NCBI GenBank assembly: GCA_049296775.1
Contig: JBAQTB010000003.1
Coordinates: 12,766-76,765, forward strand
Direction: 5' to 3'
Source: Patescibacteria group bacterium
Lineage (GTDB): Bacteria > Patescibacteriota > Patescibacteriia > UBA9934
Length of the DNA stretch: 64,000 bases
Shown here: positions 8,316 to 40,148 of the stretch, in pieces
Numbering within the stretch: position 1 is the stretch's first letter
Layout: every line of letters starts with the position of its first letter
Made by a program: the position numbers and the translations under genes
The notes under the pieces: model-generated
The model's database searches: none
What the model saw: the letters and a program-made list of their open reading frames with translations, nothing else
Told to the model about the DNA's origin: nothing

Positions 8316-8525
8316 GTGTGAAGCAGCAAAGAAGTCTTTGCTGCGAGAGCTCCGGCCGTGTGGCCAGAGCTAGCAGGCTCGCTCGTCGTGGATGTCGTGC
8401 TCGGTCCTTCGACCGGAATGGTCGACGGGGCCGAGCAAGTGCTCGGGAACACGGTCGAACGGCCCGGGGTGGCCCGGGCGCGACGACGTTGACTGGGTCG
8501 GTTCCTGTTTTTCTGACTCTTTTGA
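8316..8525 (-). ncRNA. GC-rich structured island: candidate cis-regulatory leader (riboswitch-like) or small ncRNA ending at the 8281..8315 terminator
   Basis: About 68% GC over roughly 200 nt in a roughly 50% GC genome. Multiple perfect stems, for example gcagcaaaga/tctttgctgc and gcccggg/cccgggc. Sits in the divergent 390-nt gap between 7740..8234 (-) and murB (+). Confidence 0.3.
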
Positions 8526-8624
8526 TTGGGGCGTCACGTTGCCTCCTATGGCGTGTGAGTTGCGGCTAGAGTATAGCAGAAAAATTGAATTTGTCAAGGT
8601 TTTCATGTATACTTTGAGGTATCT

Positions 8625-9599
8625 ATGTCTACTTTTTTAGAGGCTTTAACCGAGCGTTTTGCGGCTCAATTCAAGGTCGACGAGCCATTGGCTAAGCATG
8701 TTAACTTTAGGATTGGCGGACCGGCTAAGTATTTTGTAGAAGCAAGGTCGACTGAAGATTTAGTGGCGGTGGTAAAAATCGCTAGAGAGTTTGAAGTTCC
8801 ATATTTTATTTTAGGCGGTGGCTCTAATACGCTGGTGTCTGACGAGGGTTTTTCCGGTTTGGTGATCAAGGCGGCTAATCGACAAGTAATTTTTAACGGA
8901 GAAAGAGTGACGGCCGAGGCTGGGGTGATTGCTGCAACTTTGGCGCGGAGCAGTGCAGATAAAGGTTTGCGTGGTTTTGAGTGGGCCATTTCTTTGCCCG
9001 GCACAATTGGGGGTGCAGTACGTGGAAACGCTGGGTGTTTTGGCGGTGAGGTGAAAGATAATTTGGAGTCTGTGAAGTTATTGCGCCAGGGTGAGGTGGT
9101 TGAGGTCAGCGCTGCTGAGATGCGTTACGGTTACAGACACAGCATTCTGAAAGAGCCTGGTCATGAAACTGATGTGATTTTAGAGGCGACGTTCAAGTTG
9201 GCACCTGGGGACAGGGTCGAGGCCATGGCGGCCTTGGACAAGAATTTAGCTGGTCGCAAGGCTTCACAGCCGCTCGGGTCTGCTAGTGCGGGGTGTATGT
9301 TCAAGAACGTGGAGTTCGCGGATGCAGAAGAGATTAGTAAGTTAAAGTCTAAGGTCGAAATTCCAGAGAACATGTTGGCTATGCGGCGTTTAGGGGCCGG
9401 TTGGTTGATTGATCAACTTGGTTTGAAGGGCATGAAGATGGGGGAGGCGCAGATTGCACCGCAGCATGGCAATTTCTTGTTAAACGTTGGACATGCGAGT
9501 GCTAAAGATATTGCGGCTTTGATTAGTTTGGTAAAAACGCGCGCTCGGAACGAATTTGGAGTACAGTTACATGAGGAGGTCCAGTATCTGGGCTTCTAG
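8625..9599 (+). CDS. murB: UDP-N-acetylenolpyruvoylglucosamine reductase
   Basis: FAD-binding MurB N-domain (HVNFRIGGPAKYF, ILGGGSNTL) and MurB C-domain. Confidence 0.9.
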   Translation: MSTFLEALTERFAAQFKVDEPLAKHVNFRIGGPAKYFVEARSTEDLVAVVKIAREFEVPYFILGGGSNTLVSDEGFSGLVIKAANRQVIFNGERVTAEAGVIAATLARSSADKGLRGFEWAISLPGTIGGAVRGNAGCFGGEVKDNLESVKLLRQGEVVEVSAAEMRYGYRHSILKEPGHETDVILEATFKLAPGDRVEAMAALDKNLAGRKASQPLGSASAGCMFKNVEFADAEEISKLKSKVEIPENMLAMRRLGAGWLIDQLGLKGMKMGEAQIAPQHGNFLLNVGHASAKDIAALISLVKTRARNEFGVQLHEEVQYLGF

Positions 9600-29690: not shown

Positions 29691-29744
29691 GTCAGGAGCC
29701 GTATTTTCTAGATTTATCTTATCTAGCGTTTAACCCTTCGGGAA

Positions 29745-29990
29745 GATACTTTCTTTACCAGAAAAGAAAGTATCCAAAGAAACTGCCCCGTCTTTAAGTC
29801 TGTCGAGGTTGAAGTTCGTCGTCGCTTCGGGCAAACCCGGCGCTAGTCGATTCCATATTTCTAAGAAAATATCTTATTCGTTGGTATCGGCTAGCACGGG
29901 CTTTGCTATTCCTCAGCTCCCGCCGAACTTCCTAACGTAGCGCTCCTCGACAGACTCCGACGGGGATAGGCGACCCGCCGCTTACCGCCG
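29745..29990 (+). ncRNA. Candidate structured RNA element, copy A, upstream of lepA
   Basis: Perfect 12-bp 5' hairpin gatactttcttt/aaagaaagtatc, then four nested long-range helices P1-P4. About 85% identical to 37782..38024 with compensatory changes in the helices. Confidence 0.6.
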
Positions 29991-30052
29991 TTCCGATGAG
30001 TATTTCACTCGGTGGACACATGTTGGGTTTTCCGCTAAGCTAGGTCCGATTT

Positions 30053-36948: not shown

Positions 36949-37749
36949 ATGTCTGATTTTATCTTTATTTTAGGGGCGTTGGTAGCTGGTTTGCTGGCTG
37001 GTGGTATAGCTAACGCCAGAGTCATGCGGACTCAGAAGGGTTTGATTTTTACTACAAGCAAGGCTTGTTCAATTTGTGCTAAGCCCGCTCACGCTAAAGA
37101 ATATTTGCCGGTCTTTGGTTATTTTGCGGTGAAGGGTCGGTGTCATAAGTGCAAGGCGGTGATTCCGTGGCAGTATCCAGCGACGGAGGTAGTCTTTGCG
37201 GCGTTGTTTGTAGTCTTTGCGGCGCGTGCCATAAGTTTGTGGGGTTTGGAATTACCGCTCTACGCTTCAGCTGCAGAAGCAGTGCTGTTGTTCGTGCGTG
37301 ATGCCGTGGTGGTTTCAGCTTTGATTTTGATCTTTGTGTTTGATTATCGCGCCTCGATCATTCCGGACAGGTTGACGATTCCGGCCATGGTGGTTGCGAT
37401 TCTGTGTAATGTAGCGTTGGGCGTGCCGGTGACGGAGATTTTGCTCGGTGGCTTTTTGCTCGGTGGCTTCTTTGCTTTTCAGTTCCTGTTTTCTAAAGGC
37501 AAATGGGTGGGCGGGGGAGATATTCGCATGGGCATGTTGATGGGTTTCTTGTTGGGGCCGTGGTTGGGAGTTTTAGCTTTGTTGCTAGCGTATGCCGCCG
37601 GAGCGGTGGTCGGGGTTGGTTTGTTGATAGGCAAACAGCGCACTTTGGCTAGTCATGTGCCTTTTGGAACTTTCATGGCTTTAGCGACTGTGGTGACCAT
37701 GCTCTGGGGTCAGCAACTACTTGATTGGTATTTGGGATTTTTTAGCTAG
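36949..37749 (+). CDS. pilD: Prepilin peptidase (A24 family)
   Basis: N-terminal CxxC...CxxC zinc module (CSICAKP...CHKCKAV), IPWQYP, two catalytic Asp regions. Confidence 0.8.
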   Translation: MSDFIFILGALVAGLLAGGIANARVMRTQKGLIFTTSKACSICAKPAHAKEYLPVFGYFAVKGRCHKCKAVIPWQYPATEVVFAALFVVFAARAISLWGLELPLYASAAEAVLLFVRDAVVVSALILIFVFDYRASIIPDRLTIPAMVVAILCNVALGVPVTEILLGGFLLGGFFAFQFLFSKGKWVGGGDIRMGMLMGFLLGPWLGVLALLLAYAAGAVVGVGLLIGKQRTLASHVPFGTFMALATVVTMLWGQQLLDWYLGFFS

Positions 37750-37781
37750 TTGAGGGATTTTAATTAAGGTTTACTTAATTC

Positions 37782-38024
37782 GATACTTTCTTTACCAGAA
37801 AAGAAAGTATCCAAAGAAACTGCCCCGGCTTTAAGTCTGTCAGGGTTGAAGTTCGGCGTCACTCCGGGCAAACCTGAATTCGACTGATTGATATTCCTGA
37901 GCATCATCACTTGTCTATTTGAATCAGTCGACCAGGTTTGCTATTCCTGCGTTTCCGCCGAACTTCCAAATACGTCACCCCTGACAGACTCCGCCGGGGA
38001 TCTGCGAACCACCGCTTACCGCCG
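37782..38024 (+). ncRNA. Candidate structured RNA element, copy B, upstream of ligA
   Basis: Same 5' hairpin and nested helices P1-P4 as 29745..29990, with compensatory differences. Confidence 0.6.
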
Positions 38025-38075
38025 TGAAAAGTGGCTCGAGGGACGTGATTTTGAGTTGTCGTTTGGCCAGTTTAC

Positions 38076-40148
38076 ATGGTAATATTGGCCGGTATGGCTA
38101 GGTCTAAATCAGAGGCGGCGGAGAGGATTTTGAAGCTTAGGCAGCTGATTGATAAATACCGTTACGAGTACCATGTTTTGGATACTCAAGAGGTGTCTGA
38201 TGCGGTGAATGACTCATTGAAGCATGAGTTGTATCAGCTGGAGCAGGCCTATCCTGATTTGATTGTGGCCGATTCACCCACGCAAAGAATTGGCGGCAAG
38301 CCGCTGGATAAATTTAACAAGATTGAACATGTTTACCCCATGTTGTCCATGGAAGACGTGTTTAGTTTTGCGGAATTGGGTGATTGGGAGGCGCGGTTGT
38401 TGAAAATTCGTGAAGGTCAGTCAACTGATTATTACGCCATGTTGAAGATTGATGGTTTGGCGGTGTCGATTGTTTATCAGGATGGCTTGTTGGTTACAGC
38501 TGCGACCAGGGGTGACGGCAAGATAGGTGAAGAAGTGACTAACAATATTAAGACTATCGAGGCGGTGCCGCTGGCGTTGCGTGCACCTGATGAGGCTGAA
38601 TTGCAGTCATTGCAAGCGACTTTTGGTGTGTCGGCTGAAATGATTGAAAAAATCAGGTCACGTGTGGGGCGAATTGAGATTCGTGGCGAGGTGTATATGC
38701 CTAAGGCTGCCTTTGAGGCCATGAACCAGGAACGGGCCAAAAAGGGTGAAGAAACTTTTGCTAATCCGCGTAATGTGTCCGCCGGGAGTATCCGTCAGCT
38801 TGATCCGGCGATTGCGGCGAGTAGACCGCTTGATTACATGGCTTGGCGTTTAGAAACTGAGCTGGGTGAGATGACGCAAACTCTGGGGGTCGAGATTCTT
38901 AAATTGTTTGGTTTCAAGACTAGCATCGGCCAACAGTGTGAGAATTTAAAGGCGGTGAAAGCTTTTTTTGAGGCAATGGGGAAGAAACGTGACAAGTTGG
39001 ATTTTTGGATTGATGGCGTGGTCGTCAGGGTGAATGATAACGTGGCGTATAAACAATTGGGCGTAGTCGGTAAGACGCCGCGCGGTTTGGTGGCTTGGAA
39101 GTTTCCGGCTGAAGAAGCGACAACGGTGGTAGAGTCTGTGGATTGGTTTGTGGGTCGGACGGGTGCTTTGACGCCAGTAGCGACAGTTGCACCGACCTTT
39201 GTAGCGGGCACGACCGTGACACACGCCTCTCTGCATAATGCAGATGAGATTGAACGTTTAGGTTTACGTGTTGGCGATACCGTGATTTTGACAAAGGCGG
39301 GGGACATTATTCCCAAGATCATGAAGGTGTTAACGGAACTTAGAACCGGTCATGAGCAGCCGGTGATGATTCCGGAGCAGTGTCCGGTGTGTGATGCACC
39401 AACCAAACGAGTTGAAGGGGAAGTGGCGCTCATGTGTTCAAACACATCTTGTTACGCTAAAGAGCGCGAGAAAGTGCTTTACGCCGCTAGAGCTTTTGGG
39501 ATTGATGGCCTGGGCGACAGAATTGTAGAAAAATTACTGGATGCCGGGTTAGTAAAAACTCCGCCAGATATTTTCCGCCTGCAAGCTGCAGATTTTTTGG
39601 GCATTGAAGGTTTTGCTGAGCTGTCAGCTAAGAAACTTTATGATCAAATTCAGACTCGTAAAGACATCGAACTGGCGCCATTCATAGTGTCTCTGGGTGT
39701 GCGGCACGTGGGCGCAGAAACGGCGTTTGCTCTTAGCTTGGCGTTTGGCACCATCGATAATATTGCGTCAGCTAGTTTGGATGAGCTTGAACGCGTACCG
39801 GATGTGGGAGTAACTGTCGCGCAGTCTATTCACGAGTTTTTTCAGAGTGAACATGGCAAGCATATGATCAAGGATTTCGCCGAAGTCGGGGTTATGATTA
39901 AGCAGGCTAAGGCCATCAAACGGGTGCTGGATGGTCAGCGTTTTGTGGTGACTGGGACTTTAGAGTCGATTGGTCGGGAGGAGGCTAAAGACAAGATCCG
40001 CCTTTTGGGCGGCAATGTCTCGGAATCCGTCAGTAAAAAGACTGATTTTGTGGTGGTTGGTGAGAATCCGGGCTCAAAAGCTGACAAAGCGCAGGAATTA
40101 GGGGTCAAGATCTTGTCGGAAGCAGAATTTTTGCGTATGCTCGCTTGA
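38076..40148 (+). CDS. ligA: NAD-dependent DNA ligase
   Basis: Adenylation domain KxDG (MLKIDGLAV), OB, Zn finger (CPVCDAPTKRVEGEVALMCSN), HhH, BRCT. Alternative start at 38094. Confidence 0.95.
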   Translation: MVILAGMARSKSEAAERILKLRQLIDKYRYEYHVLDTQEVSDAVNDSLKHELYQLEQAYPDLIVADSPTQRIGGKPLDKFNKIEHVYPMLSMEDVFSFAELGDWEARLLKIREGQSTDYYAMLKIDGLAVSIVYQDGLLVTAATRGDGKIGEEVTNNIKTIEAVPLALRAPDEAELQSLQATFGVSAEMIEKIRSRVGRIEIRGEVYMPKAAFEAMNQERAKKGEETFANPRNVSAGSIRQLDPAIAASRPLDYMAWRLETELGEMTQTLGVEILKLFGFKTSIGQQCENLKAVKAFFEAMGKKRDKLDFWIDGVVVRVNDNVAYKQLGVVGKTPRGLVAWKFPAEEATTVVESVDWFVGRTGALTPVATVAPTFVAGTTVTHASLHNADEIERLGLRVGDTVILTKAGDIIPKIMKVLTELRTGHEQPVMIPEQCPVCDAPTKRVEGEVALMCSNTSCYAKEREKVLYAARAFGIDGLGDRIVEKLLDAGLVKTPPDIFRLQAADFLGIEGFAELSAKKLYDQIQTRKDIELAPFIVSLGVRHVGAETAFALSLAFGTIDNIASASLDELERVPDVGVTVAQSIHEFFQSEHGKHMIKDFAEVGVMIKQAKAIKRVLDGQRFVVTGTLESIGREEAKDKIRLLGGNVSESVSKKTDFVVVGENPGSKADKAQELGVKILSEAEFLRMLA

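Follow-up and report, generated by a model that had tools for sequence, protein, structure and literature searches.

What fills the two largest gaps between genes in an otherwise tightly packed stretch of bacterial genome: a functional RNA, a mobile sequence, or part of a neighbouring gene? In the window, the whole 64,000-nt stretch of Patescibacteria (CPR) DNA analysed here, the two longest intervals free of genes (362 and 326 nt) each correspond to one copy of a single element, copy A filling the spacer between mnmA and lepA and copy B that between pilD and ligA (the identities of these four neighbours come from Pfam searches on the orthologous loci). An earlier note on copy B had proposed a structured RNA, either a general leader or processing element or a mobile one. 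The features of the two copies, in window coordinates, are listed below.

37762..37780: copy B, small hairpin (hp0) AATTAAG-GTTTA-CTTAATT, 12 nt past the pilD stop codon (from the sequence and the minus-strand MFE fold).
37782-37793/37800-37811: copy B, head hairpin, GATACTTTCTTT and AAAGAAAGTATC closing the loop ACCAGA, 12 perfect bp.
37812..37822: copy B, linker, purine-rich CAAAGAAA followed by CTG.
37823..37999: copy B, rod (from MFE fold and covariation), made up of P1a 37823-29/37993-99, P1b 37834-45/37979-90, P2 37848-58/37956-66, an internal loop, P3 37868-76/37933-41, P4 37880-89/37922-31 and a variable apex.
38000..38025: copy B, conserved tail ATCTGCGAACCACCGCTTACCGCCGT; homology with copy A stops at 38025.
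37888..38082, plus strand: ORF from the ORF track, inside the element, judged spurious.
29734..29991: copy A, between mnmA and lepA, with hp0 29734-42, head hairpin 29745-74, linker 29775-85, rod 29786-29965 and tail 29966-91.

Copy B is therefore a 12-bp hairpin followed by a rod of ~180 nt, the whole unit measuring ~265 nt and lying upstream of the ligA ATG at 38094 (an alternative ATG is found at 38076). Its minimum free energy of -101.9 kcal/mol compares with -57.5 +/- 4.4 for dinucleotide shuffles (z -10.2, 0/200), and copy A folds similarly (-103.4, z -8.0). In addition, the CTG of the copy B linker is complementary to the CAG of the hairpin loop (37796-37798), which yields a pseudoknot stem of 3 bp. 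The helices originally proposed are borne out, the 5' hairpin, P1a, P1b (11 bp), P3 (9 bp) and P4 (10 bp) all being perfect; P2 is likewise a perfect 11 bp, with its 3' strand moved by the MFE fold to 37956-37966, as no pairing occurs at the previously assigned 37957-37967. The two copies are indeed bounded at the 3' end, identity starting at GATAC and ending after CCGCCGT (29991 and 38025), and the unit extends upstream beyond GATAC to include hp0 (37762-37780 in B, 29734-29742 in A). The suspicion that ORF 37888-38082 is spurious also proved sound: it has no counterpart in the other copies, and no ORF is conserved across five copies of the element, the longest ORFs varying in frame and strand. 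We can therefore confirm the proposal of a bounded, structured, non-coding unit: the element is a real, evolutionarily conserved folded unit of ~265 bases.

BLAST aligns copy A (29745-29991) with copy B at 78.9% identity over 251 nt (E 1e-48). Head and linker are 100% identical over 46 nt (29745-29790 and 37782-37827), and the rod apex is entirely different in sequence and perfectly paired in both. BLAST, profile and tail-motif searches of the window and 10 kb past its left end (~74 kb) revealed no third copy. The hp0 of copy A, CCCTTCGGG, is found again in a relative, L004, at a different locus. The copy A rod is closer to that of L004 (75.6%) than to that of copy B (67.6%), while head and tail are identical in A and B; this combination suggests the head has been homogenised within the genome, by gene conversion or co-adaptation. 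The tail motif is confined to the two window copies, L001 (which is copy A), L006, L195 and L196, and is absent from L004. L001 is a short-read (Logan) assembly from the same sample (SRR28012402) whose positions 1-233 correspond to window 29761-29993; it breaks within the copy A head hairpin, as expected of a repeated sequence.

To place the element in a wider lineage we retrieved the ligA loci of close relatives through their LigA homologues. The element is carried by L004/L005, L006 and L195/L196, in each case ~100 nt past the pilD stop, and in the L004, L006 and L195 loci a terminator hairpin and a small convergent ORF come next, with ligA beyond them. No element is present at the pilD-ligA locus of L008, L197, L007, L002 or L009. 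The LigA proteins of L008 and L197 are 79–82% identical to that of the window; the L197 spacer measures just 82 nt, and L006 exceeds L008 by ~365 nt in the interval from the pilD stop to the terminator hairpin that both have, without a duplicated target sequence. A LigA scan of GTDB genomes gave two loci only, the closer of which (L002, 71%) is without the element. Upstream of lepA no copy was seen in any relative examined, the position being taken by a minus-strand gene or a spacer of ~80 nt. Searches of viral, genome and metagenome collections with rod-derived patterns (CTTTAAGTCTGTCNNGGTTGAAGTTCG and a shorter form, exact and degenerate) returned no match, and the rod is therefore clade-specific.

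Within this clade the rod has diverged while keeping its pairing. In an alignment of copies A and B with L004 and L006, pairing holds in 94.3% of cells and both partners have changed in 21 of 63 pairs, a value reached by 0 of 500 shuffles and compared with 2–5 in slid controls. Helices 2–5 hold 20 pairs changed on both sides, and with six sequences 22 of 66 pairs are compensatory. Such covariation argues strongly for selection on the fold. The pilD-locus element has been kept in four lineages whose LigA proteins are 79–85% identical, and in the LigA tree the carriers are paraphyletic to one non-carrier clade, so that one gain and one loss are enough to explain its distribution. The pilD-locus copy is therefore old and inherited, its structure having been preserved over long divergence at a fixed locus, unlike that of a decaying selfish insert. 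Copy A is an extra paralogue of the window lineage, and the linkage to ligA and lepA an accident of this genome.

Several local features accompany these loci. Between the pilD stop and the small hairpin, the CPR relatives contain an extra conserved module, a CCATCCTGA...GAAGGAT hairpin (L004 9065-9100, L006 9290-9330, L195 465-490), which both window copies lack. The small ORF convergent to pilD (minus strand at L006 9735-9887, L004 9674-9886 and L008 ~8509-8660) encodes a hydrophobic membrane-like segment (e.g. MSQQGQSSSLDRALESPFIMFITMMVICIVLAGVIVFGLEWLATTGLTSF) and has its own terminator hairpin; it is absent from the window pilD-ligA spacer and present in L008, which has no element. We considered whether the element might be the 3' UTR of a type I toxin encoded by this ORF, and rejected the idea since the ORF is also present where the element is absent (L008). 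On the other side, relatives contain a 184-aa minus-strand gene between mnmA and lepA (JGI contig of P0011) which the window lacks, copy A occupying the corresponding spacer (window 29691-30052).

The head, by contrast with the rod, extends far beyond this clade. Its core, CTTTCTTT...AAAGAAAG, is conserved in L004, L006, L195 and more than 120 metagenome loci, and the search pattern CTTTCTTT-N4-12-AAAGAAAG-N3-5-CAAAGAAA matched at least 120 metagenome stretches (L010-L129) and 64 viral-contig stretches (L130-L193). BLAST with one member recovered Ralstonia megaplasmids (105 records) together with Comamonas, Variovorax, Ilyobacter and Pasteurella replicons; E. coli genomes gave no match, cultured phages gave short partial matches only, and BLAST of copy B against phages gave none. 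The hosts are diverse, with GC contents of 31–74%. The consensus head, ~50 nt long, reads NNTA-CTTTCTTT(T)G-loop-C(A)AAAGAAAG-TANN-CAAAGAAA(A), then the complement of the loop (also in L198, 3001-3047). It comprises a hairpin of 12–14 bp, one strand of which is all pyrimidine (CUUUCUUU) and the other all purine (AAAGAAAG), followed by a linker which repeats the purine tract (U-rich on the other strand) and bases that pair with the hairpin loop, the arrangement of an H-type pseudoknot. What had been described as merely a 5' hairpin is in fact a pseudoknot module conserved far beyond this genome, a feature the earlier note missed.

Features not imposed by the search pattern are shared by these loci, and the metagenome matches are therefore not chance. 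Among the matches listed, the hairpin is extended by four further covarying base pairs (one outer position is TA in 59, CG in 24, GC in 15 and AT in 6), complementarity of at least 4 bp between the loop and the downstream bases occurs in 59% of members compared with 13% of shuffled pairings, and the length of the linker A-run tracks that of the stem T/A run (Spearman 0.67, p 2e-16). A second small hairpin lies within 14 nt of the head in 88 of 122 members (72%), and its loop is complementary to the spacer in 34% versus 9% of controls, again among the matches listed. The pseudoknot stem is only 3 bp long in the window copies and 2–3 bp in L004 and L006.

The head is always joined to a variable body, rods or three-way junctions among the matches listed, and the CPR element has only the head in common with the wider family. 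Neither is there a neighbouring protein common to the contexts of 120 head loci (among the matches listed): the largest protein cluster covers 8 loci and consists of an aminotransferase and spurious reverse-strand ORFs, and Pfam searches on recurring spurious peptides (..LLRQKKVSKEKATP..) gave no match. For the 42 members in which both neighbouring genes were called among the matches listed, 20 lie between convergent genes, 6 between co-oriented and 4 between divergent ones; convergent spacers are over-represented in the family and divergent ones under-represented. Several loci contain 2–3 head copies, in both orientations.

Other repeated motifs were noted alongside the head. Many proteobacterial-like and low-GC members contain a second conserved motif at the body apex, AACTCGC-(short hairpin)-GCTCAAACAG (on the other strand CUGUUUGAGC...GCGAGUU), ~100–130 nt past the head, for example in L020, L017, L022, L042, L045 and L047; the CPR copies are without it. 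Positions 600-1100 of L036 form a tandem array with a period of ~100–130 nt in which each unit has a partial head motif, AAAAGAAAGTGGGCAAAGAAAATTCTATAAGCGGGTGG, and which may be a different, array-forming relative. The giant-virus MAG GVMAG-M-3300023184-110 has many head-pattern matches, up to four per stretch (L131, L134, L139, L147, L155, L157, L177, L182, L187 and L190), and these may be an unrelated low-complexity repeat.

The element does not belong to a curated RNA family. Rfam 15 found three tRNAs only in the whole window, two chance-level matches only at E <= 10 on 37700-38100, and, at gathering score, nothing at the element in eighteen family loci. The nearest likeness is to RF02421 (Bp1_684), which matches the reverse strand of L076 with 37.4 bits, below its gathering score of 44, and the CPR relative L195 with 13.9 bits at the equivalent place, by the CCATCCTGA module; the window copies do not match it at E <= 10. 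The RF02421 model opens on the final few bases of the hairpin in the head (AGAAAAGUGA) and spans the small hairpin and ~80 nt on the reverse strand, and it contains neither the pseudoknot head nor the rod. The window copies in turn lack its extension of ~80–100 nt, since their hp0 lies 12 nt from the pilD stop. RF02421 represents the Burkholderia sRNA candidate Bp1_Cand684_SIPHT, which is RT-PCR positive in B. pseudomallei, occurs in several phyla beside unrelated flanking genes and is of unknown function, a trans-acting role having been proposed (PMC3521395). Full-text literature searches returned no description of the head, of the head-plus-rod architecture or of a CPR ncRNA of this kind.

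Known structured RNAs offer partial parallels. The order of the reverse-strand head (U-rich tract, pyrimidine strand, loop, purine strand) matches that of triple-helix H-type pseudoknots such as telomerase RNA, SAM-II, preQ1-II and ENE/MALAT1-type structures, and the U-rich tract (UUUCUUU) runs parallel to and in register with AAAGAAAG, as U.A-U and C+.G-C triples need. Triple-helix riboswitches differ in having a gene association, which the element family lacks, and Rfam gave no match to SAM-II, SAM-V or preQ1-II. We rejected a one-to-one triple helix running the full length of the major groove: too little linker remains to close it beside the outer helix of 4 bp, which covaries. We therefore claim the pseudoknot alone and treat the triples as conjectural. 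Like 6S RNA and other rod-shaped housekeeping RNAs, the element has a ~180-nt rod with conserved internal loops, is poorly conserved in sequence and is present as one or two paralogues in a genome. 6S RNA, however, has no counterpart to the pseudoknot head, no 6S model matched at E <= 10, and the element must be dispensable, unlike 6S, because it is absent from close relatives. Among more distant candidates, an HDV-like ribozyme was discarded since the two pseudoknots are consecutive rather than nested, a group II intron remnant for want of domain V/VI and of a 5' GUGYG, and an integron attC site for want of R''/R' core sites, the flanking genes being housekeeping genes. A TnpB/Cas12-type guide RNA scaffold, suggested by a head with a copy-specific flank, was set aside as there is no nuclease gene near any copy. 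Nor does the element resemble a retron msr-msd, its neighbours being mnmA, lepA, pilD and ligA and its tail having no complement upstream of the head.

Which strand would be folded can be approached through wobble pairs. Among the matches listed, one outer head pair is C.A or A.C in 26 cases and G.T in 1, as would be seen if U.G pairs formed on the reverse strand; for 80 of 104 members the more stable fold is the reverse one (mean difference 6.7 kcal/mol); and G.U pairs in these 104 members number 835 on the reverse strand versus 578 on the forward strand. Stability follows the same trend in the window copies (-113.7 and -112.8 reverse, -103.7 and -105.3 forward) and in L004 and L006. The window copies have almost no G.U or A.C positions, and in the CPR subset G.U exceeds A.C on both strands, so with too few informative positions in the copies themselves their strand is assigned from the wider family alone. 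This suggests the folded strand is the minus strand, antisense to ligA. A consensus scan of the element regions found no sigma-70-like promoter or canonical terminator on either strand, the intrinsic-terminator consensus being absent for copy A and limited in copy B to a marginal 6-bp site within the linker.

The reading we favour, tentatively and with somewhat less than even confidence, is that the element is a stand-alone structured RNA of an undescribed broad family, probably read from the minus strand, with the head as a docking and protecting module. Copies A and B would be paralogous genes, or gene-like units, for a structured RNA of ~265 nt, transcribed from the minus strand of the window, antisense to ligA and pointing away from it, and convergent with pilD. 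Such an RNA would run from a 5' tail through the rod and pseudoknot head to the small hairpin at its 3' end, and would act on its own rather than as a leader. The near-invariant head may serve both to dock a conserved partner, a protein or ribonucleoprotein, and to protect the 3' end, with the rod as structural body; that the RNA acts in trans is a guess by analogy. We prefer a functional RNA to a decaying insert or a leader because of the fold, the covariation, the syntenic retention and a tertiary module that crosses phyla, and the RF02421 match on L076, which lies on the reverse strand beside the head, is in keeping with expression elsewhere.

If correct, a compact CPR genome with almost no spare DNA retains two copies of a 265-nt folded RNA, and unrelated bacteria and phage contigs have in common, near letter for letter, a recognition module belonging to no curated RNA family. 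This would be an abundant class of orphan RNAs whose testable architecture joins a pseudoknot head to a rod that varies, the head motif offering a handle for finding the partner. A bolder proposal, possible and on balance rather unlikely, is that the head defines a new and very widespread modular RNA class, spanning Patescibacteria, Proteobacteria, Bacteroidota-like, Firmicutes-like and Fusobacteriota genomes and phage contigs, which is either a self-propagating RNA element or a universal adaptor for a conserved machine. The head class might also provide the first long U.A-U triple helix in bacteria.

Patchy presence, contigs with several copies in both orientations, viral contigs and sharp boundaries tell against a stand-alone RNA in that they also fit a mobile element, and the mobile alternative raised in the earlier note is still live. 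In this main rival, which we consider unlikely and nonetheless serious, a non-autonomous element would move through an RNA or single-stranded-DNA intermediate: an enzyme encoded elsewhere would recognise the head, the rod would have to stay folded for mobility, and copies would land in ‘safe’ intergenic sites near gene 3' ends. Orthologous sites are indeed both occupied and empty among close relatives (the ~365 extra nt of L006, the 82-nt spacer of L197), the lepA-side copy is found in the window genome only, homology boundaries are sharp, and copy A is where the short-read assembly from this sample breaks. The loci with 2–3 copies in both orientations, the spread of the head across phyla and 64 viral-contig stretches, and the bias towards convergent over divergent spacers (20 versus 4 of 42 among the matches listed) point the same way. 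REP/REPIN, ERIC and MITE sequences are similarly intergenic and non-coding, often sit between convergent genes, fold into long hairpins, and occur in several copies that are present or absent between relatives. However, these families are species- or genus-specific in sequence and have no pseudoknot that crosses phyla, and the copy number of the element is very low, ~74 kb of this genome containing two copies only. MITEs are marked by terminal inverted repeats and duplicated target sites, and the element shows neither: its ends (AATTAAGG.../GATAC... and ...CTTACCGCCGT) are unrelated, and the flanks of A, B and L006 have no common duplication. The element might still be of the IS200/IS605-type PATE or REPIN kind, which combines similar subterminal hairpins at both ends, a conserved target tetra- or pentanucleotide at one flank and a genomic Y1 transposase (TnpA/RAYT), although it has a hairpin at one end only and its tail flanks differ (TCCGA, GAAAA and GAGAA). 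No transposase, integrase or reverse transcriptase is common to the 120 contexts, among the matches listed. The paralogues are of long standing, with rods 67.6% identical in which compensation is nevertheless complete, and the pilD-locus copy looks vertically inherited, both of which speak against mobility.

Could the element instead work on the plus strand, as the 3' end of the pilM-pilD and mnmA operons? We regard this as improbable. As a terminator, insulator or mRNA stabiliser it would block read-through into ligA and lepA and hold off 3' exonucleases, and long stable hairpins, as in REP-type elements, do impede polymerases and exonucleases. Within the CPR clade the element always follows a co-oriented gene (pilD at five loci, mnmA for copy A), and the family is enriched at gene 3' ends among the matches listed. 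Set against this, it lacks the G+C-rich hairpin plus U-tract of an intrinsic terminator, since the plus-strand rod does not run into a U-tract and the scan called no terminator-like site, and the relatives already have a separate terminator hairpin alongside. A pseudoknot invariant across phyla would be superfluous for such a role, and the wobble asymmetry favours the opposite strand.

More doubtful still is a function at the DNA level, in which a cruciform or triplex would be a site for recombination, priming or single-stranded-DNA protein binding. The head joins an inverted repeat to a tract of purines alone that recurs as a mirror repeat (AAAGAAAG..CAAAGAAA), which is what intramolecular triplex DNA classically requires, and the rod is a near-perfect palindrome, which is why both strands fold. 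Strand-asymmetric wobbles and the conserved asymmetric internal loops (GGCAAACC / TTTGCTATTCC) nevertheless suggest one folded strand, and pseudoknots between a loop and its linker are characteristic of RNA. One family member is, moreover, transcribed in part (PMC3521395).

Least probable of all is a plus-strand 5' leader or processing element common to the ligA and lepA mRNAs, for although the window copies lie 60–68 nt upstream of a co-oriented start codon with no promoter consensus in between, ligA is cut off from the element by the terminator and convergent ORF in L004, L006 and L195, the element is missing ahead of ligA in five relatives and ahead of lepA in every one examined, only 6 of 42 family members (among the matches listed) lie between co-oriented genes, and the strand evidence is opposite, antisense to ligA. 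This part of the original proposal thus appears largely refuted by synteny, while its rejection of a metabolite riboswitch is upheld, as the element has no conserved co-oriented position before ligA or lepA. It should be annotated neither as a regulatory leader of ligA or lepA nor as a protein-coding ORF.

One further resemblance concerns the tail, where CGCTTACCGCCGT (38013-38025 and 29979-29991) appears similar to the complement of the universal 16S rRNA 530-loop, GCCGCGGUAA; the match, of 7–8 contiguous complementary bases, may be chance.
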